Source of the DNA: Escherichia coli
GTDB lineage: Bacteria; Pseudomonadota; Gammaproteobacteria; Enterobacterales; Enterobacteriaceae
Assembly: GCF_013315695.1 (NCBI RefSeq)
Contig: NZ_CP054353.1
Reading direction: 5' to 3' (one strand)
DNA length: 64,000 nucleotides
A model generated the notes under the pieces. That model was not told the origin of the DNA and searched no databases. It was given only the letters and a program-made list of their open reading frames with translations. This document shows, piece after piece, positions 4,211-62,595 of the stretch (its first letter is position 1; every line of letters starts with the position of its first letter). Position numbers and translations under genes: made by a program.

Positions 4211-5224
4211 TCACCTCTCCTCAACCAGCGGCACCATCACATCACGCGACCAGGAAACCATCACCTGTTGACCGGGCGTGAGCGTATTGGGTAAGTCTTC
4301 GCCCGTTACATTTGCCTGGCTAACCAGCAGTTTTTCTCCACCGCTAAGTTTCAGTTCAAAACGTGTGGCTGCCCCCTGATATTGCACCGCCTGAATCGTG
4401 CCATTAGCCTGCACTTCGCCGGGGATGTTGAAGCGGATATGTTCCGGTCGCAGGGCGAAGCTTCCCGTCATGCCACAAAGTTTGTCTGCCATCAGTGCAT
4501 CAAAAACATTCGATGTCCCGACGAACCCGGCAACAAACGGCGTGCGCGGGCGCATATAGAGATCGCGCGGGGAATCGACCTGCTCAATGCGTCCATTATT
4601 GAAAACCGCCACACGATCGGACATCGATAACGCTTCGCCCTGATCGTGGGTAACGAAGATAAAAGTGATACCGAGAGACTGTTGCAGCTTTTTCAGTTCC
4701 AGTTGCATCTGCTCACGCAATTTGAGATCCAGTGCGCCGAGCGGTTCATCCAACAGCAATACGCGCGGTTCATTCACCAGTGCTCTGGCAATAGCAACCC
4801 GTTGGCGCTGACCACCAGAAAGTTGTGACGGTTTACGTTGCTGTACAAACCCCAACGCCACTTTCTCCAGCGCCTCCTGCGCCATCGCATGCCGCTGCTT
4901 TTTATTCACGCCTTTGACCATCAGCCCATAGGCGACATTGTCAAGAATCGACATATGCGGGAATAGCGCGTAGTCCTGAAAGACAGTATTCACGTCCCGC
5001 TCCCACGGTGGCAGATTGCTGGCGGGTTTACCAAAGATAGAGATAGCCCCGCCGGAAAGTTGTTCGAATCCAGCAATCAGGCGCAGGCAGGTGGTTTTGC
5101 CGGAACCGGACGGCCCCAGCATAGAGAAGAACTCACCATCTTTTATCGCAATACTGACGCCATCTACTGCGCGCACGTCACCGTACAACCGTGAGACGTT
5201 GTCAAACTCCACTGCGTACGTCAT
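4211..5224 (-). CDS. ydcT: ABC transporter ATP-binding protein (337 aa)
   Basis: Walker A GPSGSGKTT, signature LSGGQRQR, Walker B LLLDEP in translation. Confidence 0.9.
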   Translation of the reverse strand: MTYAVEFDNVSRLYGDVRAVDGVSIAIKDGEFFSMLGPSGSGKTTCLRLIAGFEQLSGGAISIFGKPASNLPPWERDVNTVFQDYALFPHMSILDNVAYGLMVKGVNKKQRHAMAQEALEKVALGFVQQRKPSQLSGGQRQRVAIARALVNEPRVLLLDEPLGALDLKLREQMQLELKKLQQSLGITFIFVTHDQGEALSMSDRVAVFNNGRIEQVDSPRDLYMRPRTPFVAGFVGTSNVFDALMADKLCGMTGSFALRPEHIRFNIPGEVQANGTIQAVQYQGAATRFELKLSGGEKLLVSQANVTGEDLPNTLTPGQQVMVSWSRDVMVPLVEER

Positions 5225-5241
5225 AAAACACCCCAGCGAAG

Positions 5242-6387
5242 TTAGCGACCACCCATAATGGCAATGTAATCCTGCGTCCAGCGACTGTAGGGAACAAACT
5301 TGCCCCCTTCTGCTATAGGCGTTTTCCAGAAGGCGATTTTATCGAAATAGTTAAAACCGTTTGTTTCACAACCTTTCTCGCCTAATAACGGACTGGCTTT
5401 ACACCCTTGCGGCACTACTGGTAGCGAGCCAAACCAGGCCGCCACATCGCCCTGCACTTTTGGGGTTAATGACCAGTTCATCCATTTGTAGGCGCAAACC
5501 GGATGTTTCGCTTCGCTATGTAGCATGGTGGTATCAGCCCAACCGGTAACGCCCTCCTTCGGGAAAACGGTAGCGACAGGCTGGCCTTCGGCTTTCAGGG
5601 CGTTGGCCTGATAGGGCCATGCACTGGAAGCAACCACACCCTCGTTTTTGAAATCGCTCATTTGCACGGTAGTGTCATGCCAGTAGCGATGGATCAAACT
5701 ATGTTGATCGCGCAGCACTTTCAGCACCGCCTGGTACTGTTCTTCGGTGAGTTGATACGGATCGCTGATGCCCAACTGTGGCTGAGTGGCTTTAACGAAC
5801 AACGCAGCGTCCGCAATGTAGATAGGGCCATCATAAGCCTGAACGCGGCCTTTATTGCTCTTGCCGTCCGGCAGATTCTGCTCAACAAAAACCACTTGCC
5901 AGCTATTCGGCGGCGTCGGGAAGGTTTTAGTGTTGTACATCAGCAGGTTCGGCCCCCATTGGTAAGGTGTGCCGTAAACTTTGCCGCCAACGTTAAACCA
6001 GTCGCCTTTAACCACGCGCGGATCGAGCGCTTTCCAGTTGGGAATCAATGCGGTATTAATCGGCTGCACGCGTTTGCCCATAATCAGGCGCAGCGAGGCA
6101 TCGCCGGATGCCGTAACCAGATCGTAACCCCCTTTGGTCATCAGACTGACCATTTCATCGGAAGTCGCGGCGGTTTTCACATTCACCGCGCAGCCTGTCT
6201 CTTTTTCGAATTGCGTTACCCAGTCGTATTGTTTATCAGTTTGTCCGCGTTCGATGTATCCCGGCCAGGCGATAATATCCAGTCGCCCTTCCGGTTTATC
6301 TAAATTGGTAGGCGGTTCGGCGGCGTGAGCGGTCATTATTGTCATGGTGAGCGCACACAGGCTGCTGCGGGCAAATATCTTGCTCAT
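5242..6387 (-). CDS. ydcS: Periplasmic substrate-binding protein of polyamine-type ABC transporter (381 aa)
   Basis: Signal-peptide-like N terminus; operon synteny with ydcTUV. Confidence 0.85.
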   Translation of the reverse strand: MSKIFARSSLCALTMTIMTAHAAEPPTNLDKPEGRLDIIAWPGYIERGQTDKQYDWVTQFEKETGCAVNVKTAATSDEMVSLMTKGGYDLVTASGDASLRLIMGKRVQPINTALIPNWKALDPRVVKGDWFNVGGKVYGTPYQWGPNLLMYNTKTFPTPPNSWQVVFVEQNLPDGKSNKGRVQAYDGPIYIADAALFVKATQPQLGISDPYQLTEEQYQAVLKVLRDQHSLIHRYWHDTTVQMSDFKNEGVVASSAWPYQANALKAEGQPVATVFPKEGVTGWADTTMLHSEAKHPVCAYKWMNWSLTPKVQGDVAAWFGSLPVVPQGCKASPLLGEKGCETNGFNYFDKIAFWKTPIAEGGKFVPYSRWTQDYIAIMGGR

Positions 6388-51516: not shown

Positions 51517-52431
51517 ATGTACTCAATAAAAAAAGTAACCATGCTCTTGGGGTGCCTCGCCCTCACCTGCTCGATCGCATTTCAGGCGAGTGCAACTGAA
51601 AAATTCAAGGTCATTACAACATTTACCATCATCGCAGATATGGCCAAAAACGTGGCTGGAGATGCTGCAGAAGTCTCATCCATAACCAAGCCCGGTGCAG
51701 AAATTCATGAGTATCAGCCTACCCCTGGCGATATTAAACGTGCGCAGGAGGCACAACTGATTCTCGCCAATGGTATGAATCTGGAATTGTGGTTCCAACG
51801 CTTTTACCAGCATCTTAATGGGGTTCCAGAAGTAATTGTCTCTTCGGGTGTGACGCCAGTAGGGATCACTGAAGGCCCCTATGAGGGCAAACCTAACCCC
51901 CATGCCTGGATGTCGCCAGATAATGCTCTGATTTACGTCGATAATATTCGTGATGCGTTGATAAAATACGATCCGGCAAATGCACAAACCTACCAACGTA
52001 ATGCCGATACTTATAAAGCCAAGATTACCCAAACCCTTGCCCCCCTGCGTAAGCAGATTGCTGAACTCCCTGAGAATCAGCGATGGATGGTCACCAGTGA
52101 AGGGGCTTTTTCTTATCTCGCACGCGATTTGGGGCTAAAAGAGCTTTATCTGTGGCCGATTAATGCCGATCAACAAGGCACGCCGCAGCAGGTACGTAAG
52201 GTTGTTGATATGGTGAAGAAAAATCATATCCCGGCAGTCTTTAGCGAGAGTACGATTTCCGATAAACCAGCGCGTCAGGTTGCGCGTGAAACCGGCGCGC
52301 ACTACGGCGGTGTACTCTATGTCGATTCCCTGAGCACAGAAAACGGCCCGGTACCTACGTATATCGACCTTCTGAAGGTTACTACCAGTACGCTGGTACA
52401 GGGAATTAAAGCCGGGAAAAGGGAGAAATAA
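51517..52431 (+). CDS. sitA: Periplasmic Mn/Fe-binding protein of Sit ABC transporter (304 aa)
   Basis: Signal peptide plus metal-binding lipoprotein-9-like sequence; first gene of a four-gene transporter operon. Confidence 0.85.
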
Positions 52432-53258
52432 TGATGCAATCTGCGGGCATTGTCGTTAATGATGTTACTGTCACCTGGCGTAACGGGCACACAGCACTGC
52501 GCGATGCATCCTTCACAGTACCAAGTGGATCTATTGCCGCTCTGGTTGGGGTAAACGGTTCCGGAAAATCGACGTTGTTTAAAGCGATTATGGGATTTGT
52601 GCGTCTGACCAGCGGAAAGATATCTGTTCTGGGTATTCCCACGCGACAGGCGCTACAGAAAAACCTGGTTGCCTACGTCCCTCAGTCAGAAGAGGTTGAC
52701 TGGTCATTTCCTGTACTAGTGGAAGATGTGGTGATGATGGGCCGCTATGGGCACATGGGTATGTTGCGTATAGCCAAAAAGAGGGATCGTCAGATTGTCA
52801 CCGATGCGCTGGAACGTGTCGATATGGTGGATTTTCGCCATCGACAAATCGGCGAGCTTTCCGGTGGACAAAAGAAACGCGTCTTTCTGGCGAGAGCGAT
52901 TGCACAGCAGGGTGATGTGATCCTGCTGGATGAACCTTTTACCGGCGTTGATGTGAAAACCGAAGCGAAAATCATCAGCCTGTTGAGGGAGTTACGCGCG
53001 GAAGGCAAGACGATGCTTGTCTCAACGCACAATCTCGGCTCAGTCACGACATTTTGCGATTATACGGTCATGGTCAAAGGCACCGTCCTGGCAAGCGGGC
53101 CGACAGACACCACTTTTACAGCCGAGAACCTGGAGCTGGCTTTTAGCGGCGTACTGCGCCATGTCACACTTAACGCCTCGGAAGAAAGCATTATTACTGA
53201 CGATGAACACCCTTTTGTGGCACATCGACCGTCAGCGGTGCAGAGGGAAGCAAGATGA
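52431..53258 (+). CDS. sitB: Sit transporter ATP-binding protein (275 aa)
   Basis: Walker [10 protein letters not shown], signature LSGGQKKR, Walker B ILLDEP. Confidence 0.85.
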
Positions 53259-54112
53259 ACGTGCTACTGGAACCCTTCAGCTATGAATATATGCTCAATG
53301 CGATGTGGGTCTCGGCGATGGTCGGCGGTCTCTGCGCTTTCCTGTCATGCTATCTGATGCTAAAAGGCTGGTCGCTGATTGGCGATGCGCTGTCGCACTC
53401 TATTGTCCCGGGTGTTGCGGGGGCATATATGCTGGGGCTTCCGTTTTCTCTGGGAGCCTTCTTTTCCGGCGGACTGGCAGCGGGCAGCATGCTGTTTCTT
53501 AACCAACGCACTCGCTTAAAAGAAGATGCCATCATCGGCCTGATCTTCTCCTCCTTTTTTGGCCTGGGGCTGTTTATGGTGTCATTGAACCCGACATCCG
53601 TGAACATTCAGACCATCGTCCTAGGCAATATTCTGGCAATCGATCCGGCGGATATCCTGCAACTCACTATCATTGGCATTCTCTCGATCATCGTGCTTTT
53701 TTTCAAATGGAAAGATCTTATGGTGACCTTTTTCGACGAGAATCACGCCCGTGCTATTGGATTGCATCCGGGCAGATTAAAAATCCTCTTCTTCACCCTG
53801 CTGTCGGTTTCGACCGTTGCGGCGCTGCAAACGGTTGGTGCCTTTCTGGTGATCTGTCTGGTGGTGACTCCCGGTGCAACAGCATGGTTGTTAACCGATC
53901 GTTTTCCCCGCCTGCTCATAATTGCTGTAACTATTGGCAGTGTAACCAGTTTCCTCGGCGCGTGGGTCAGTTACTTTCTGGACGGCGCGACAGGTGGAAT
54001 CATCGTGGTGGCGCAGACACTGCTGTTTCTTTTAGCATTTGTATTTGCGCCCACCCATGGGCTTTTGGCAAATCGTCGGCGTGCGCATAAAGCGCTGGAG
54101 GATCGCTCATGA
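53255..54112 (+). CDS. sitC: Sit transporter permease (285 aa)
   Basis: Multi-pass membrane ORF overlapping sitB end. Confidence 0.85.
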
Positions 54113-54966
54113 TGGCATTATTACTGGAGCCACTGCAGTTCACCTTTATGAGTCACGCACTGCTGATTTCACTGGTAGTTTCCATACCCTGTGCGCTGCT
54201 GTCGGTCTTTCTGGTCCTGAAAGGTTGGGCACTGATGGGTGACGCGATGAGTCATGCGGTTTTTCCTGGCATCGTGCTTGCCTGGATTCTGGGGTTACCT
54301 CTGGCTACAGGGGCATTTATCGCCGGAGTATTCTGCGCGGTGGCGACGGGATACCTGAAAGACAACAGCCGAATCAAGCAAGATACAGTGATGGGGATTG
54401 TTTTTTCTGGCATGTTTGCCGCAGGTCTGATCTTGTATATTGCAGTCAAACCAGACATACATCTTGACCATATTCTTTTCGGCGACATGCTCGGGGTAAC
54501 CATCGGCGATATAATCCAGACGATGATTATTGCCGGGCTGGTTACACTTGTTATTAGCGTAAAATGGCGGGATTTTTTGCTGTTCAGCTTTGATTATCAA
54601 CAGGCGCAGGTAAGCGGTTTGCATACGCGATGGCTGCATTATGGGCTGCTGTGCATGGTTTCCCTGACCATTGTGGCGACGCTGAAAGCAGTAGGTATCA
54701 TTCTCTCCATTTCTCTGCTCATTGCGCCTGGCGCCATTGCGGTACTCCTGACACAACGCTTTCATATTGCACTCCTACTGGCGACTGGCATATCGGTAAT
54801 AGTCTCAATGACTGGTGTTTGGCTGTCCTTTTTTATCGACAGCGCACCCGCTCCGACGATTGTCGTCTTATTCGCGGTTGTGTTCATCATGACGTTTACC
54901 GTTATCAGTTTCAACGCACGCACAAAGGGAAACGCTCATAGACAGGATCTGTTATCCCCCAATTAG
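54109..54966 (+). CDS. sitD: Sit transporter permease (285 aa)
   Basis: Multi-pass membrane ORF overlapping sitC end. Confidence 0.85.
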   Translation: MMALLLEPLQFTFMSHALLISLVVSIPCALLSVFLVLKGWALMGDAMSHAVFPGIVLAWILGLPLATGAFIAGVFCAVATGYLKDNSRIKQDTVMGIVFSGMFAAGLILYIAVKPDIHLDHILFGDMLGVTIGDIIQTMIIAGLVTLVISVKWRDFLLFSFDYQQAQVSGLHTRWLHYGLLCMVSLTIVATLKAVGIILSISLLIAPGAIAVLLTQRFHIALLLATGISVIVSMTGVWLSFFIDSAPAPTIVVLFAVVFIMTFTVISFNARTKGNAHRQDLLSPN

Positions 54967-55417
54967 CACAACATCCGAGGGCAGCATTGTCCGCTAGTAC
55001 ACTGCAGTCCAGAAAGTCATGGGCGGACGTTGGGAGGAGGCGCTAATCCTTTCATACAAAAAATATGTAAAATCAATAACGGCTGTAAATCATTCAATAC
55101 TCGCACTATCGGAAGTTCACCAGCCAGCCGCAGCACGTTCTTGCATACGACGTGTCTGCGGTTTCAACTTCACCAGTCCACCAATCACGATGGACAGTGC
55201 CAAGACAGCACTAGCAAAAACAGGAAATTAGCAGTCTCAGCAGAACACCGACCAGACGGTGAAGAAACAAAAAAGGATACGCAAAGGGGCCGCAGTTCCC
55301 GATTGATAAAAAAGCCAGCTTATGCGCTTTTTTTTCATGTATTATTAAGTATTGGTTAGCGTCTTTTTAATCAGAACTTTAAAGACAAGCCATTTGTAAG
55401 AAAACCGACAGATTCGG

Positions 55418-56233
55418 TTGACAAGCAGGAGTAATACTTTGGACATAAGAAAAGATTTGGAATCAGTAGCCCAATATATAAGTAGACTGTTATCGATAGG
55501 GTACGAATTTAGCCGTTTTGATAAAGACTGGGTCCATTTAAAAAATGAAGAGGATTTTCGTTTTATTTCAAGAATACCATTTGCAACACGGAATAAAGTG
55601 GAAGCAGTATATGCGGAAGGCAGAGATATGGCACTTTATATGTCTGATGAGTTACTATCCATTAATAGTGATTTCAGTAAATTTCCAACGTTGACAGCTA
55701 TTATCGAAAGATTCAAGGACACTTGGGTTTATGGTAATTATGATTCGGAAGTGCCAAATATAGCTAAAAAAACATGCGAAGAAAATGCAGTTCAGCTTTG
55801 GTCTGTAGAACAGATGTGTTCCTTATTCAAAAAGCAAGAACAACTATTAGCAGCAGTACGTATCACATTGCAGATGCTACAAGATAGTGACCTATACAAG
55901 ATGGAGAATGGTTTACCTCTTATGAAACAAGAAGCTAATATTCATGTCAGTGGAATTTCCGGTTCTAGTATCAATATACATTCTTCAGGTGCTACGGCAA
56001 CTACTACGACAAATTATAATGAGCCCACAATATTTAATGAAATGATTGAGGCAATAAAATCGAAAAACTTTGATGGCGCGACAGAATCACACCTTATAGA
56101 TAATGTACAGGCACTGGCAGCCAGTCACCAAAGCGGCTGTTTTAAAGAAGCATATAAGGACTTTATTAATAATGTATCTGCACACATTACAGTATTTACT
56201 CCATTTCTTGCTGGCATATCATCTTTACTATAA
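55418..56233 (+). CDS. Hypothetical protein, AT-rich orphan ORF (271 codons from TTG; a TTG at 55439 has better Shine-Dalgarno spacing)
   Basis: Long open frame in a visibly low-GC segment; AGGAG at 55427..55431; no family recognised; Ser/Thr-rich linker SGISGSSINIHSSGATATTTTN. Confidence 0.55.
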   Translation: MTSRSNTLDIRKDLESVAQYISRLLSIGYEFSRFDKDWVHLKNEEDFRFISRIPFATRNKVEAVYAEGRDMALYMSDELLSINSDFSKFPTLTAIIERFKDTWVYGNYDSEVPNIAKKTCEENAVQLWSVEQMCSLFKKQEQLLAAVRITLQMLQDSDLYKMENGLPLMKQEANIHVSGISGSSINIHSSGATATTTTNYNEPTIFNEMIEAIKSKNFDGATESHLIDNVQALAASHQSGCFKEAYKDFINNVSAHITVFTPFLAGISSLL

Positions 56234-56778
56234 AATAAGTGACAGATACATTAATACATAACGAAAAATCTTTTTAGCTACTCATTCATATCAATAGTGC
56301 CCTACCATAGGGCACATTATTCGTGGAACTCGTTTATGACAAAAGAATTTTGATGGTCTGCCTGATGCAACAGATATAATTCTGGGAGTGTTGAGTAAGA
56401 GTATTCACCGGCGCTCAACACAAATGCCAGCAAGCACGAGAAAGAGCAGGTAAGCCTGAGTGTTCAGGAAATGTTTGAAAAGGCTAATATGTGGCTGGTT
56501 TCAGATTAAACGCCTTGAACCGTCATATTACTTAAGTACAATCCGCCTAGACTAGCAATCATTCAATAGTAGCACTATCGAGCGCTCGCCAGTCGAGCGC
56601 AATCATGCTCCTTGCATACGGCGTGCAGCATATCACAAAACGATTACGCCATGACGGACTGCAGGCTACTCAATATCTGGCTCGATTAGCGTATTGGCAT
56701 GATTTAACAGACCCCGGCGCTTATTCCCAGCAACCTGAAGCGGCACCTCTTCCTGTGTTGCGTTTACAACTCCCTTTT

Positions 56779-57087: not shown

Positions 57088-57148
57088 TAAAACGAGGCGC
57101 TCGGCCCCTTAATATTATTTAGACGCAAGCGTCGGTAATGACTCCAAC

Positions 57149-57652
57149 TTATTGATAGTGTTTTATGTTCAGATAATGCCCGATGACTTTGTCATGCAGC
57201 TCCACCGATTTTGAGAACGACAGCGACTTCCGTCCCAGCCGTGCCAGGTGCTGCCTCAGATTCAGGTTATGCCGCTCAATTCGCTGCGTATATCGCTTGC
57301 TGATTACGTGCAGCTTTCCCTTCAGGCGGGATTCATACAGCGGCCAGCCATCCGTCATCCATATCACCACGTCAAAGGGTGACAGCAGGCTCATAAGACG
57401 CCCCAGCGTCGCCATAGTGCGTTCACCGAATACGTGCGCAACAACCGTCTTCCGGAGCCTGTCATACGCGTAAAACAGCCAGCGCTGGCGCGATTTAGCC
57501 CCGACATAGCCCCACTGTTCGTCCATTTCCGCGCAGACGATGACGTCACTGCCCGGCTGTATGCGCGAGGTTACCGACTGCGGCCTGAGTTTTTTAAGTG
57601 ACGTAAAATCGTGTTGAGGCCAACGCCCATAATGCGGGCTGTTGCCCGGCAT
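57149..57652 (-). CDS. insB: IS1 InsB reading frame
   Basis: Translation identical to copy 1 InsB. Confidence 0.9.
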
Positions 57653-57846
57653 CCAACGCCATTCATGGCCATATCAATGATTTTCTGGTGCGTACCGGGT
57701 TGAGAAGCGGTGTAAGTGAACTGCAGTTGCCATGTTTTACGGCAGTGAGAGCAGAGATAGCGCTGATGTCCGGCGGTGCTTTTGCCGTTACGCACCACCC
57801 CGTCAGTAGCTGAACAGGAGGGACAGCTGATAGAAACAGAAGCCAC
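57571..57846 (-). CDS. insA: IS1 InsA
   Basis: Translation identical to copy 1 InsA. Confidence 0.9.
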
Positions 57847-57925
57847 TGGAGCACCTCAAAAACACCATCATACACTAAATCAGTAAGTTGGCAGCATCAC
57901 CCCCGGCGTTAAGGGGAGAGATAAG

Positions 57926-58060
57926 ATGGTGCATTACGAAGTAGTTCAGTATTTGATGGATTGTTGCGGTATCACTTACAACCAGGCTGTGCAGGCTTTA
58001 CGCAGCAACGCCTGGGATCTCTGGCAGGCAGAAGTCGCTATACGTAGCAACAAGATGTGA
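57926..58060 (+). CDS. ydaG: Rac prophage small protein, YdaG-like (44 aa)
   Basis: Hand-translated MVHYEVVQYLMDCCGITYNQAVQALRSNAWDLWQAEVAIRSNKM; name assigned from length and position. Confidence 0.5.
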   Translation: MVHYEVVQYLMDCCGITYNQAVQALRSNAWDLWQAEVAIRSNKM

Positions 58061-58070
58061 GATTCGCAAA

Positions 58071-58226
58071 ATGCAAAAAATCGACCTCGGCAACAACGAA
58101 TCCCTGGTGTGCGGCGTGTTCCCCAACCAGGATGGAACGTTCACTGCCATGACGTATACCAAAAGCAAAACATTTAAAACCGAAACTGGTGCGCGCCGAT
58201 GGTTGGAGAAGCACACAGTAAGCTAA
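58071..58226 (+). CDS. ydaF: Rac prophage small protein, YdaF-like (51 aa)
   Basis: Hand-translated MQKIDLGNNESLVCGVFPNQDGTFTAMTYTKSKTFKTETGARRWLEKHTVS. Confidence 0.5.
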   Translation: MQKIDLGNNESLVCGVFPNQDGTFTAMTYTKSKTFKTETGARRWLEKHTVS

Positions 58227-58711
58227 CGATTAAAACGTCTACTCCTGCTGTTCCAGAATAACTTCATAAAATGGGAGTATTTTTCGGTGACGAGATAATA
58301 AGAACAGTTTGCGCTATCACTCTGATGTTGAATGATGCCCTTCCGTTCTAATTTTTTCATAACCGGGTTACGGCAAGGAGAAGTGATAATAAGATTTCCT
58401 GTTTTAAGGAAATCTTTAAATACAGCGATTTCTTTCTCAGATAAACGAAGCAATACTCGTTGCTCTGGTAGTAATGAATAATGCTTTTGAATATGTGCTC
58501 GCAATCTTGAGAAGGAAATGGCGACCACGAAAGAAAAGGCAAAAACGATAATCTGAAAGAGCCAAGGTATTTCAGTATAAGCATTGAATGCGACAGTAAA
58601 CTCTTTCGGTATCAGCCAGAGAGTGAGACCAAAAATGATAATCGTATACATAAGTCTTTCGAGTGGCTCGTTAGCAAAAAGTTTCAATAATGGAGTAGAT
58701 ACATCCAACAT
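58223..58711 (-). CDS. sieB: Superinfection exclusion protein B, Rac prophage (162 aa)
   Basis: Start set at MLDVSTPLLKLFANEPLERLMYTIIIFGL within longer track ORF. Confidence 0.8.
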   Translation of the reverse strand: MLDVSTPLLKLFANEPLERLMYTIIIFGLTLWLIPKEFTVAFNAYTEIPWLFQIIVFAFSFVVAISFSRLRAHIQKHYSLLPEQRVLLRLSEKEIAVFKDFLKTGNLIITSPCRNPVMKKLERKGIIQHQSDSANCSYYLVTEKYSHFMKLFWNSRSRRFNR

Positions 58712-59151
58712 ATCAATAACTCTCAACTGTAAGGGTATTGAAATGTTAACACAAGCTCTCGCTGTAGGGGTATAGCCGAGACCACCGAAGCCCGGAGGTG
58801 GTGAAATAAAACCGGGCACAACACGAAGGCGCATTTCCGATATCCATAAAGAGTCGGTCTTGTCTGTTAAATTTAAATGGTGGGAGTGCGCCTCCGGTTG
58901 TAAATAACGACATTGCTGTGTGTAGTCCTGGCGGCATCAGTTTTTTCTTGAAGTTCGGCTGATGTCCGCCCTTTTTTAAGTGAATTTTGTGATGCGGTGA
59001 ATGCGGCTAAGCGCACGTGGCACAGTTAAAAGTCATGTTAGTCCTTATTGGTTTGGGTGGGAAAGCCGACTGTAATTGTTAACTGGTTGCAGTCACCTGG
59101 AGGCACCAGGCACCGCATCAACAAAGTTCATTTGTAAAAATGGAGATAATT

Positions 59152-59373
59152 ATGATTGCACATCACTTCGGAACTGATGAAATACCACGTCAGTGTGTGA
59201 CTCCTGGCGATTATGTTCTTCATGAAGGCCGGACATATATTGCCTCGGCAAACAATATTAAAAAGCGAAAACTATATATTCGTAACCTGACCACAAAAAC
59301 ATGCATTACTGACCGCATGATTAAAGTCTTCCTCGGTCGTGATGGTTTACCTGTAAAGGCGGAGTCATGGTGA
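59152..59373 (+). CDS. kilR: Cell-division inhibitor KilR, Rac prophage (73 aa)
   Basis: [38 protein letters not shown]... Confidence 0.8.
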
Positions 59374-59543
59374 TGACTAAGAAAATAAAATGTGCTTACC
59401 ACCTTTGCAAAAAAGACGTTGAAGAAAGCAAAGCTATTGAAAGAATGCTTCACTTCATGCACGGGATTTTATCAAAAGACGAACCGAGAAAATATTGCAG
59501 TGAATCTTGTGCCGAAAAAGACCAGATGGCACATGAACTTTAA
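59373..59543 (+). CDS. ydaE: Rac prophage small zinc-finger-like protein YdaE (56 aa)
   Basis: Hand-translated [56 protein letters not shown]; start overlaps kilR stop. Confidence 0.6.
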   Translation: MTKKIKCAYHLCKKDVEESKAIERMLHFMHGILSKDEPRKYCSESCAEKDQMAHEL

Positions 59544-59617
59544 TTAATTGACTATTCGAAACTGAATTTATGCCAGAAATGGCAGGTATTCGCTCAACCT
59601 TAATTAAGGAGAAAAAC

Positions 59618-59893
59618 ATGATTACCAATTATGAAGCCACTGTTGTAACTACCGATGACATTGTTCACGAGGTGAATCTGGAAGGAAAGCGCATTGGCTA
59701 CGTAATTAAAACAGAAAATAAAGAAACCCCATTCACTGTGGTTGATATCGATGGTCCATCAGGCAACGTAAAAACACTTGATGAAGGTGTCAAAAAAATG
59801 TGCCTGGTGCATATCGGAAAGAATCTGCCCGCAGAAAAAAAAGCCGAATTTCTGGCAACTCTAATTGCAATGAAATTAAAAGGTGAAATCTGA
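59618..59893 (+). CDS. racC: Rac prophage protein RacC (91 aa)
   Basis: Start set at MITNYEATVVTTDDIVHEVNLEGKRIGYVIK. Confidence 0.75.
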   Translation: MITNYEATVVTTDDIVHEVNLEGKRIGYVIKTENKETPFTVVDIDGPSGNVKTLDEGVKKMCLVHIGKNLPAEKKAEFLATLIAMKLKGEI

Positions 59894-59994
59894 AAGAAAT
59901 AGCCTGCGTATGGCGCAGGCTATGAACAGTGTGTATCCGGCAAGATCATTCACTGAACAAAACGAATTTTAATCTGAGTTGAGGTTAAAAAACA

Positions 59995-62595
59995 ATGAGC
60001 ACAAAACCACTCTTCCTGTTACGGAAAGCGAAAAAATCATCCGGTGAACCTGACGTCGTCCTGTGGGCAAGCAACGATTTTGAATCGACCTGTGCCACTC
60101 TGGACTACCTGATCGTTAAGTCAGGTAAAAAACTGAGCAGCTATTTTAAAGCTGTTGCCACGAATTTTCCTGTCGTTAATGACCTGCCCGCTGAAGGTGA
60201 GATCGATTTTACCTGGAGTGAACGCTATCAACTCAGCAAAGACTCCATGACATGGGAACTAAAACCGGGAGCAGCACCAGACAACGCTCACTATCAAGGC
60301 AATACCAACGTCAACGGCGAAGACATGACTGAGATTGAGGAGAATATGCTACTCCCAATTTCTGGCCAGGAACTGCCCATTCGTTGGCTTGCTCAACACG
60401 GCAGCGAAAAACCGGTAACGCACGTTTCACGCGACGGACTCCAGGCATTACACATTGCTCGGGCTGAAGAACTACCGGCTGTTACTGCCCTGGCTGTTTC
60501 CCACAAAACCAGCCTGCTCGACCCGCTGGAAATTCGCGAACTCCACAAACTGGTTCGTGACACTGACAAAGTTTTCCCTAATCCTGGTAATTCAAACCTG
60601 GGACTGATAACTGCTTTTTTCGAAGCATACCTGAACGCTGACTACACCGATCGAGGACTGCTGACAAAAGAGTGGATGAAGGGTAATCGTGTTTCACACA
60701 TCACTCGCACGGCTTCCGGTGCTAATGCTGGCGGCGGAAACCTCACCGATCGCGGCGAAGGTTTCGTACACGATCTGACGTCACTGGCGCGCGACGTAGC
60801 CACTGGCGTACTGGCCCGTTCAATGGATCTGGACATCTATAACCTTCATCCGGCACACGCTAAACGCATTGAGGAAATTATCGCTGAAAATAAACCGCCC
60901 TTTTCTGTTTTCCGCGACAAATTCATCACCATGCCTGGCGGGCTGGATTATTCCCGCGCCATCGTGGTTGCGTCCGTAAAAGAAGCACCAATTGGGATCG
61001 AGGTCATCCCCGCGCACGTCACTGAATATCTGAACAAAGTACTGACTGAAACCGATCATGCCAACCCTGATCCGGAAATCGTGGATATTGCCTGCGGTCG
61101 CTCCTCTGCCCCGATGCCGCAGCGAGTAACAGAAGAAGGAAAACAGGATGATGAAGAAAAACCGCAACCATCTGGAACAACGGCAGTTGAACAGGGAGAG
61201 GCTGAAACAATGGAACCGGACGCAACTGAACATCATCAGGACACGCAGCCGCTGGATGCTCAGTCACAGGTAAATTCTATTGATGCGAAATATCAGGAAC
61301 TGCGGGCAGAACTCCATGAAGCCCGGAAAAACATTCCATCAAAAGATCCTGTCGATGCCGATAAATTGCTTGCTGCATCACGTGGTGAATTTGTTGACGG
61401 AATTAGCGACCCGAACGATCCGAAATGGGTAAAGGGGATCCAGACTCGCGATTGTGTGTACCAGAACCAGCCAGAAACGGAAAAAACCAGCCCGGATATG
61501 AATCAACCTGAGCCAGTAGTGCAACAGGAACCGGAAATAGCCTGCAATGCCTGCGGCCAGACTGGCGGGGATAACTGCCCTGACTGTGGTGCGGTGATGG
61601 GCGACGCAACATACCAGGAAACATTCGATGAAGAGAGTCAGGTTGAAGCTAAGGAAAATGATCCGGAGGAAATGGAAGGCGCTGAACATCCGCACAATGA
61701 GAATGCTGGCAGCGATCCGCATCGCGATTGCAGTGATGAAACTGGCGAAGTCGCAGATCCCGTAATCGTAGAAGACATAGAGCCAGGTATTTATTACGGA
61801 ATTTCGAATGAGAATTACCACGCGGGTCCCGGTGTCAGTAAGTCTCAGCTCGATGACATTGCTGATACTCCGGCACTATATTTGTGGCGTAAAAATGCCC
61901 CCGTTGACACCACAAAGACAAAAACGCTCGATTTAGGAACCGCTTTCCACTGCCGGGTACTTGAACCGGAAGAATTCAGTAACCGCTTTATCGTAGCACC
62001 TGAATTTAACCGCCGTACAAACGCCGGAAAAGAAGAAGAGAAAGCGTTTCTGATGGAATGCGCAAGCACAGGAAAAACAGTTATCACTGCGGAAGAAGGC
62101 CGGAAAATTGAACTCATGTATCAAAGCGTTATGGCTTTGCCGCTGGGGCAATGGCTTGTTGAAAGCGCCGGACACGCTGAATCATCAATTTACTGGGAAG
62201 ATCCTGAAACAGGAATTTTGTGTCGGTGCCGTCCGGACAAAATTATCCCTGAATTTCACTGGATCATGGACGTGAAAACTACGGCGGATATTCAACGATT
62301 CAAAACCGCTTATTACGACTACCGCTATCACGTTCAGGATGCATTCTACAGTGACGGTTATGAAGCACAGTTTGGAGTGCAGCCAACTTTCGTTTTTCTG
62401 GTTGCCAGCACAACTATTGAATGCGGACGTTATCCGGTTGAAATTTTCATGATGGGCGAAGAAGCAAAACTGGCAGGTCAACAGGAATATCACCGCAATC
62501 TGCGAACCCTGTCTGACTGCCTGAATACCGATGAATGGCCAGCTATTAAGACATTATCACTGCCCCGCTGGGCTAAGGAATATGCAAATGACTAA
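59995..62595 (+). CDS. recE: Exodeoxyribonuclease VIII (RecE), full-length 866 aa
   Basis: 866-aa ORF with acidic central region and C-terminal nuclease domain; directly followed by overlapping recT. Confidence 0.9.

Follow-up and report, generated by a model that had tools for sequence, protein, structure and literature searches.

A window of 64,000 nucleotides (nt) of Escherichia coli DNA (assembly GCF_013315695.1, contig NZ_CP054353.1; all coordinates are those of this whole stretch unless a locus handle is given) was analysed around an AT-rich gene that lies between the sitABCD operon and prophage DNA and encodes the RefSeq protein WP_000354607.1. The coding sequence spans 55439..56233 on the + strand (264 amino acids (aa) plus stop, TTG start), as judged from the list of open reading frames (ORFs), the RefSeq annotation in E. 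coli strain 7/2, the alignment of homologues and the evidence for purifying selection. An earlier note, made from the letters of the sequence, had described an uninterrupted frame of 271 codons, and this frame is present at 55418-56233 on the + strand when codons are counted from the first TTG of the ORF list; the protein is shorter, since a start at the TTG at 55439 gives 264 aa. That TTG is almost certainly the true start, given that a Shine-Dalgarno sequence AGGAG can be read at 55427..55431 (+), 7 nt before it, that RefSeq begins the protein of strain 7/2 (identical sequence, 264 aa, "hypothetical protein") at this codon, and that the homologues, nearly all of 264 aa, can be aligned from the residue encoded there. 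The TTG at 55418, from which the earlier note had counted, is located upstream of the AGGAG.

The GC content of the ORF is 35.6% (27.5% at third codon positions) compared with 50.4% for sitABCD, about 50% for the flanks and 49.2% for the window, which bears out the low-GC segment noticed earlier. When WP_000354607.1 was compared with five homologues, the proportion of nonsynonymous differences (pN) was 0.15-0.29 and that of synonymous differences (pS) 0.74-0.95 (saturated), and in the one homologue pair where the ratio of nonsynonymous to synonymous substitution rates (dN/dS) could be computed it was about 0.12. The ORF at 55439-56233 is a real gene under purifying selection; with pN well below pS against all five homologues it is more than the chance frame in AT-rich sequence that the earlier note had considered.

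Non-ATG starts (TTG or GTG) were observed for the window gene and for four of the five homologues examined in this respect (loci L002, L005, L007 and L008, position 8001), the fifth, from Pseudomonas (L004), being called with an ATG at a longer start (295 aa). Such starts could keep the expression of a potentially toxic protein low.

The locus and its cargo slot

The upstream neighbour is the sitABCD iron/manganese transporter operon (51517..54966, +; ORFs and RefSeq names), in which sitD ends at 54966. Between it and the gene lies a conserved non-coding element (55013..55335) that forms the left boundary of a cargo slot. Alignment of seven copies placed its core at about 55086-55164, with an invariant stretch of about 80 nt (AAATCATTCAATACTCGCACTATCGGAAGTTCACCAGCCArCCGCAGCACGTTCTTGCATACGACGTG), and the core holds a terminator-like hairpin, CCGCAGCACGT-N9-ACGTGnCTGCGG. 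Among 5426 complete E. coli genomes the element at 55013-55335 was found in about 1100 others, with partial matches in 1237. In the contexts inspected (L013-L018) a DinI-like gene is followed by the element and then by variable cargo that extends up to the tail-fibre genes. PADLOC matches in the alternative cargo of this slot included a type II restriction endonuclease (1.5e-233) together with its methyltransferase, a type IV methyl-directed restriction endonuclease (1415 bits), PD-T4-3 (2e-140) and an Aga helical-restriction-endonuclease-like protein (1e-26). Given the conserved core upstream and the known defence systems in the same slot of other strains, WP_000354607.1 is, on sequence evidence, part of the cargo of a defence hotspot at the end of a prophage. 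Non-defence cargo also occurs in such slots, namely ydfK and ynaM in strain 144.

At the prfC locus the same slot contains two hypothetical genes in the same orientation, of 344 aa and 252 aa, which had no PADLOC match (4443-5477 and 5576-6334 of L014, E. coli 1303; 4440-5474 and 5573-6331 of L015, NQ3), and this pair is a possible further uncharacterised two-gene cargo. A search of the literature found no paper that names a hotspot on the dinI side; the Tai systems (PMC11364771), which were considered, are located at other phage positions.

On the right-hand side the gene is followed by a frameshifted pseudogene of the DinI-like family (56323..56509, +; as annotated by RefSeq for the same sequence in strain 7/2) and by a second, degenerate copy of the core (56555..56625), detected by repeat finding and alignment, which follows the DinI-like pseudogene as in other prophages. 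The direct repeats that the earlier note saw on both sides of the gene are thereby recovered, at 55088-55154 and 56557-56625, with 76-93% identity. In strain 7/2 the order is sitABCD, WP_000354607.1, the frameshifted DinI-like gene, a small reverse-strand gene and, beyond it, the genes for the tail fibre, Lom and J of a lambdoid prophage. In the window, an IS1A element (insA and insB; 57134..57901 with approximate ends, - strand; from the ORFs and the annotation under a 100% match in MSB1_4I) lies about 900 bp downstream of the ORF, truncates the tail-fibre end, taking the place of the tail-fibre genes of strain 7/2, and joins the locus to a Rac-type remnant with ydaF, sieB, kilR, ydaE, racC and recE (57926-62595). 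The neighbouring IS1 and the position between the sit island and a prophage remnant, with sitD on one side and prophage DNA on the other, had thus been recognised correctly. The IS1A junction was present in 2 of the 5426 complete genomes (MSB1_4I and OZ547117), and the window is identical to MSB1_4I across it. Because the junction is this rare, it probably arose by a recent IS1-mediated deletion or rearrangement.

The region was also scanned for signals and for further genes. A consensus scan reported a terminator-like hairpin with a weak T-run at 56297..56315 (+), 64 nt past the stop codon, the count of such hairpins being not above the shuffled expectation, and a promoter scan, which was not informative, found no clear promoter for WP_000354607.1. 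Rfam gave only sub-threshold matches on the flanking element, among them CssrB at 55129-55191 of the opposite strand (23 bits versus a gathering threshold of 76). Inside the element, two ORFs that overlap each other (70 and 109 codons; 55019-55359, +) are probably not genes because the element is unannotated in nearly all genomes.

A head domain with exchangeable tails

Among E. coli strains the gene is uncommon and almost clonal: it was found in 104 of the 5426 complete genomes, always as a single copy and at least 99% identical. Beyond the species, an indexed search returned full-length matches in 62 clusters (90% identity level) at 40-99% identity, with full-length homologues in Escherichia, Enterobacter, Klebsiella, Serratia, Edwardsiella, Pseudomonas, Stutzerimonas, Pseudoalteromonas, Celerinatantimonas and metagenomes, i.e. 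in many Gammaproteobacteria. A search of 1.84 billion cluster representatives (50% identity clusters) with a profile of the family gave 1071 proteins at E <= 1e-3, 247 of them at E <= 1e-10. Most of these match through the N-terminal part, and among the best 150 many align only at residues 1 to about 160 and are 300-740 aa long. The ORF had been called an orphan without a recognisable family; 62 full-length clusters and 1071 profile-matching clusters at 50% identity do not bear this out, and the protein belongs to a large conserved family that no curated library names. No match to the window protein was found in Pfam, NCBIfam or PHROGs, nor by a profile search of solved-structure sequences, and a tblastn search of plasmid and phage collections with WP_000354607.1, as well as searches of phage genomes and viral structures, gave no match.

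A second E. coli lineage was also observed (L007 8001-8801, protein P0036; P0040 is similar), 57% identical and without a partner gene. It occupies another site in a lambdoid prophage, with the replication/early genes on one side and the Q/lysis genes on the other.

An AlphaFold2 model built from a 49-sequence alignment (mean predicted local distance difference test score, pLDDT, 89.7) divides the protein into three parts. Residues 1-157 (55439..55909, +) are modelled as an all-alpha head domain (pLDDT 91-97), residues 158-196 (55910..56026, +) as a low-confidence linker (pLDDT about 58) of which 50% is S/T/N/G, and residues 197-264 (56027..56230, +) as a tail of three helices, delimited by the model and by the search with the C-module. 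The C-module, comprising linker and tail helices, is roughly 100 aa long (residues about 165-264). The helical N-terminal half, Ser/Thr-rich linker and hydrophobic end that were read from the sequence originally match this model and the composition. Alignment invariants define three motifs in the head, W31-x-H-L-K-N-x-E38-D39-F, Y58-x-x-G61-R62-D and L152-Y-K-x-E156-N-G, and the linker carries the conserved motif SGxSGSSININSxGA. The protein ends in an uncharged hydrophobic helix at its extreme C-terminus, AHITVFTPFLAGISSLL (residues 248-264; 56180..56230, +), with a Kyte-Doolittle value of 1.51. Across 139 family members the last 17 residues have a mean Kyte-Doolittle value of 1.34 +/- 0.31 and about 0.4 charged residues, and the hydrophobic segment is followed by a median of one residue.

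The relatives show that the head is a module. A local re-analysis covered 210 retrieved proteins, of which 207 carry the head and 100 the window-type C-module, and clustering of the tails of about 200 family proteins separated at least 32 unrelated classes on the same head. The Pfam domains found as tails in relatives are TIR, TIR_2, SEFIR, CAP12/Pycsar-type TIR, CHAT protease and PNP_UDP_1 (nucleosidase). PADLOC matches in the tails were to the C-terminal domain of PDC-S54 (1e-74, with a D...ExK-like motif), bSEFIR (3e-51), PDC-S66/ThsB/RT-TIR-type TIR (2e-32), PDC-S35 (2e-16) and the PDC-M60C/PN-superfamily effector. About 15 of the tail classes consist of plain transmembrane helices (Kyte-Doolittle 1.7-3.0), and several relatives have tails that match PDC-M14B (down to 1.6e-10) or AbiTi (3e-8) and end in glycine-rich hydrophobic helices; the AbiTi-like tails are clear in P0154 and P0085, which match the PADLOC AbiTi model. 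The bSEFIR, PDC-S54, PDC-S35, PDC-S66 and ThsB-like TIR proteins share these effector domains with the relatives of the window protein but have other N-terminal parts, and none of their models covers residues 1-157. The head itself had no model in Pfam, NCBIfam, PHROGs or PADLOC, and in the 45 relatives scanned there were no Pfam matches over it. In the window protein the tail has no recognisable enzymatic domain.

The C-module was also found on another head (P0195) and in small stand-alone proteins, one of which is encoded in an island that also contains REase-ARP, SLFN/AlbA_2 and a KAP NTPase. Given that single-chain immune proteins are characterised by one constant domain to which different killing domains can be attached, we infer that the head may be the constant sensing or regulating part of such proteins.

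In four relatives (P0149, 449 aa; P0192; P0199; P0208) an extension precedes the head. The 136 residues preceding the head of P0149 resemble a response-regulator receiver, and Pfam Response_reg was matched in one of the 25 long relatives scanned, a hint that phosphorelay control of the head is possible.

In other genera the homologues belong to prophages or to islands with an integrase, where AAA_15/AAA_21 ATPases, BrnT/BrnA and restriction-modification genes or methyltransferases are close by, and one member with a head-plus-TIR arrangement has TIR, Macro, YAcAr and helicase genes as neighbours. Six independent contexts were compared, and in three of them a gene of 229-239 aa in the same orientation begins 71-387 nt downstream (L002 8903-9607, L004 9276-9995 and L005 8873-9562). 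One of these three genes was observed to encode DUF4145, which is a HEPN-type domain (PMC3710099), and another showed a weak match to the HEPN region of Csx1. A conserved downstream partner was considered and rejected, the three neighbour genes having no detectable similarity to one another; they are perhaps second effectors that vary, or just adjacent cargo. The arrangement is also not that of a type II toxin-antitoxin pair: there is no abutting co-directional ORF in the window, and the neighbours of the homologues are not conserved.

Relation to AbiT and PDC-M14

A profile of divergent members of the family retrieved six proteins with Pfam AbiTii (P0290-P0295), which carry a canonical PADLOC AbiTii domain at residues 1-185 (1e-38 to 1e-52). 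One class of tails found on the head described here (class B; P0086, P0099, P0159, P0167 and P0179) is 38-55% identical to residues 186-295 of these AbiTii proteins, with E-values down to 6e-38. Because this tail is common to both, the head and the AbiTii domain are, as judged from sequence comparison, alternative and interchangeable heads on one tail. No description of this exchange was found in the literature, and the head is unnamed in every library queried.

The two heads themselves could not be related. Comparison of the head with the AbiTii domain by hhalign gave a probability of 0.5-1.7%, so that homology of the heads is not demonstrable, and Pfam PF18864 and PADLOC AbiTii had no match on the window protein or on 45 relatives. 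The AbiTii domain has an alpha+beta fold (PMC3710099) and was modelled with five beta-strands (pLDDT 73, shallow alignment), in contrast to the all-alpha head of the window protein. The overall layout is shared with the fused proteobacterial AbiTii-domain proteins: an N-terminal head of about 160-185 aa, an N/Q/S/G-rich low-confidence linker, and 3-4 helices of which the C-terminal one is hydrophobic and rich in small residues. Both heads are also joined to enzymatic effectors, AbiTii being known in combination with HEPN domains (PMC3710099). Lactococcus lactis AbiT differs in consisting of two genes (AbiTi, 127 aa, and AbiTii, 213 aa), whereas the window gene supplies head and tail in one chain. 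From this comparison AbiT looks like a split form of the same architecture, in which AbiTi would correspond to the tail alone and AbiTii to the head alone. The mechanism of action of AbiT is unknown (PMC13064643).

The C-module of the window protein belongs to another tail class than class B. PADLOC AbiTi had no match on the window protein, and residues 170-258 gave a marginal match to positions 149-239 of the PDC-M14B profile (E = 1.7e-3, 16 bits; homologues 2e-4 to 4e-4). When this tail was compared directly with the AbiTi-like tails by hhalign, the probability was 3.8-5.8% with a narrow profile, which does not show homology, and 63% with a broad one; a relation of the window tail to AbiTi-type tails is suggestive only. 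PDC-M14, for which no paper was found in the literature, is an unvalidated two-gene phage defence candidate of PADLOC-DB v2. The lengths agree (profiles of 261-276 aa for PDC-M14B versus 264 aa for the window protein), but the match is limited to the C-terminal third and does not extend over the full-length profile, and no PDC-M14A partner was found in the window or beside the family members examined (L002, L004 and L005).

Interpretation and rival explanations

The gene has already been flagged by a published predictor. In DefensePredictor (Science 2026, PMC13092281), Table S10 ("uncharacterized_clusters"), WP_000354607.1 bears the label "Putative novel defense gene"; its log-odds average 6.59 (standard deviation 0.84, range 5.15-7.56) compared with the strict threshold of 4 used in that paper. 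An HHblits match to an AbiTii-domain protein is also given there (36% coverage, probability 96.2%); the coverage is about the size of the C-module, on which the match may lie. Of 94 high-scoring units cloned in that study 45% were validated, the rate rising with the log-odds (PMC13092281), and WP_000354607.1 is not among the cloned or validated units of its Tables S6-S8. The entry is a prediction without a name or domain analysis for this protein, and a search for the accession in the main texts of papers found nothing relevant.

The earlier suggestion of a horizontally acquired defence, abortive-infection or toxin gene gains support from four computational lines that are independent of one another: the slot that holds known systems in other strains, the fusion of the head to effectors, the occurrence of homologues in prophages and defence islands, and the DefensePredictor score. 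We infer from these a defence function, a sensor role of the head and a membrane action of the tail, and with moderate confidence we regard WP_000354607.1 as an abortive-infection protein made of one chain, in which a new sensor head is combined with a tail that is AbiTi-like and probably acts on the membrane. The protein would be self-contained anti-phage cargo, carried by a lambdoid prophage at its tail-fibre end. The head (residues 1-157), as the constant part, would keep the protein inactive and react to a cue from the phage, and the C-module (residues about 165-264), here the linker and a three-helix bundle with no enzymatic domain, would be the exchangeable effector. The trigger would free the terminal hydrophobic helix for insertion into, or assembly in, the inner membrane, and the infected cell would be depolarised before phage progeny are made. 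The architecture would be that of lactococcal AbiT, AbiTii head and AbiTi tail, combined in a single polypeptide in which another, unnamed head takes the place of AbiTii. More tentatively, and at a clearly lower level of confidence, the head may be the phage-sensing module of a large family of abortive-infection proteins, each a single chain, with at least 30 effectors; two-gene AbiT would be the split form of this head-and-tail design, and the AbiTi-type tail, the window variant included, a conditional membrane-inserting killer.

Three observations weaken the reading as a membrane-acting abortive-infection protein. The homology of the window tail to AbiTi-type tails is marginal, and the predicted fold of the protein is uninformative about function. 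In addition, the best 19-residue window, at the extreme C-terminus, reaches a Kyte-Doolittle value of 1.53, compared with the usual transmembrane threshold of 1.6 or more, so the protein does not resemble an integral membrane or holin-like protein; the terminal helix may be inserted conditionally or as a tail anchor.

The gene might instead be one half of a two-gene system whose partner was lost in E. coli, the window copy being an inactive or differently acting leftover. The co-directional downstream genes in three of six contexts, one of them with DUF4145 and one weakly similar to the HEPN region of Csx1, fit this idea, as do the two-gene organisations of lactococcal AbiT and of PDC-M14 and the fact that the next feature in the window is the DinI-like pseudogene. 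The three downstream genes are, however, mutually dissimilar and none matches the PDC-M14 models, stand-alone copies occur in E. coli, in the second E. coli lineage and in Enterobacter, and head and tail are already one chain, i.e. what the two AbiT genes supply separately. We consider a lost partner unlikely.

Equally unlikely, in our judgement, is a prophage accessory gene ("moron") without a defence role, acting in lysogenic conversion, fitness or sit-linked virulence or as a membrane or lysis-timing factor. The ydfK and ynaM cargo of strain 144, the adjoining virulence-associated sitABCD transporter and the tail without a recognisable enzymatic domain are in line with such a gene. Conversion genes are unlike the relatives of this protein, in which the same head is fused to typical immune effectors (TIR, SEFIR, CHAT, nuclease-like and nucleosidase domains), and homologues without sit occur in unrelated genera, while phage genomes and viral structures contain no match.

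The polarity of the protein could also be reversed, with a toxic or enzymatic conserved head and with variable C-termini that act as sensors, localisers or regulators. In CapRel-type systems the toxin is the constant part and the sensor is varied, and the strictly conserved polar residues of the head (R4, D6, K35, E38, D39, Y58, R62, N76 and E156) are a potential active or binding site. With tails that include TIR, SEFIR and CHAT domains on the same head, we regard this arrangement as improbable, to a greater degree than the two preceding explanations. A decaying or non-functional remnant in this strain, which the frameshifted DinI-like gene, the duplicated boundary repeats, the truncation of the prophage by IS1A and the lack of a clear promoter in the scan might suggest, is similarly improbable given that 100 or more genomes share this intact ORF in identical form, with an intact Shine-Dalgarno sequence and strong purifying selection across the family.

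The preferred reading, a single-chain abortive-infection protein, thus concerns an architecture and a context that are already known from defence proteins. Should the prediction prove wrong, the gene would simply join the prophage accessory genes without a known role. If it is true, the widespread head domain, which has no entry in Pfam, NCBIfam, PHROGs or PADLOC v2, would be a marker for finding defence genes, and the natural fusions to TIR, SEFIR, CHAT, nuclease-like and nucleosidase domains and to membrane helices would be a ready set in which one sensor can be studied against different effectors. About one fifth of the complete E. coli genomes have a prophage-end cargo slot marked by the core of about 80 nt that follows dinI-like genes, and this slot could be mined for further systems. 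The swap of this head with AbiTii on shared tails would suggest that AbiT is a separately encoded head and tail, would open its mechanism to direct tests, and would give a first mechanistic handle on AbiT, for which the mode of action has been unknown since 2002.

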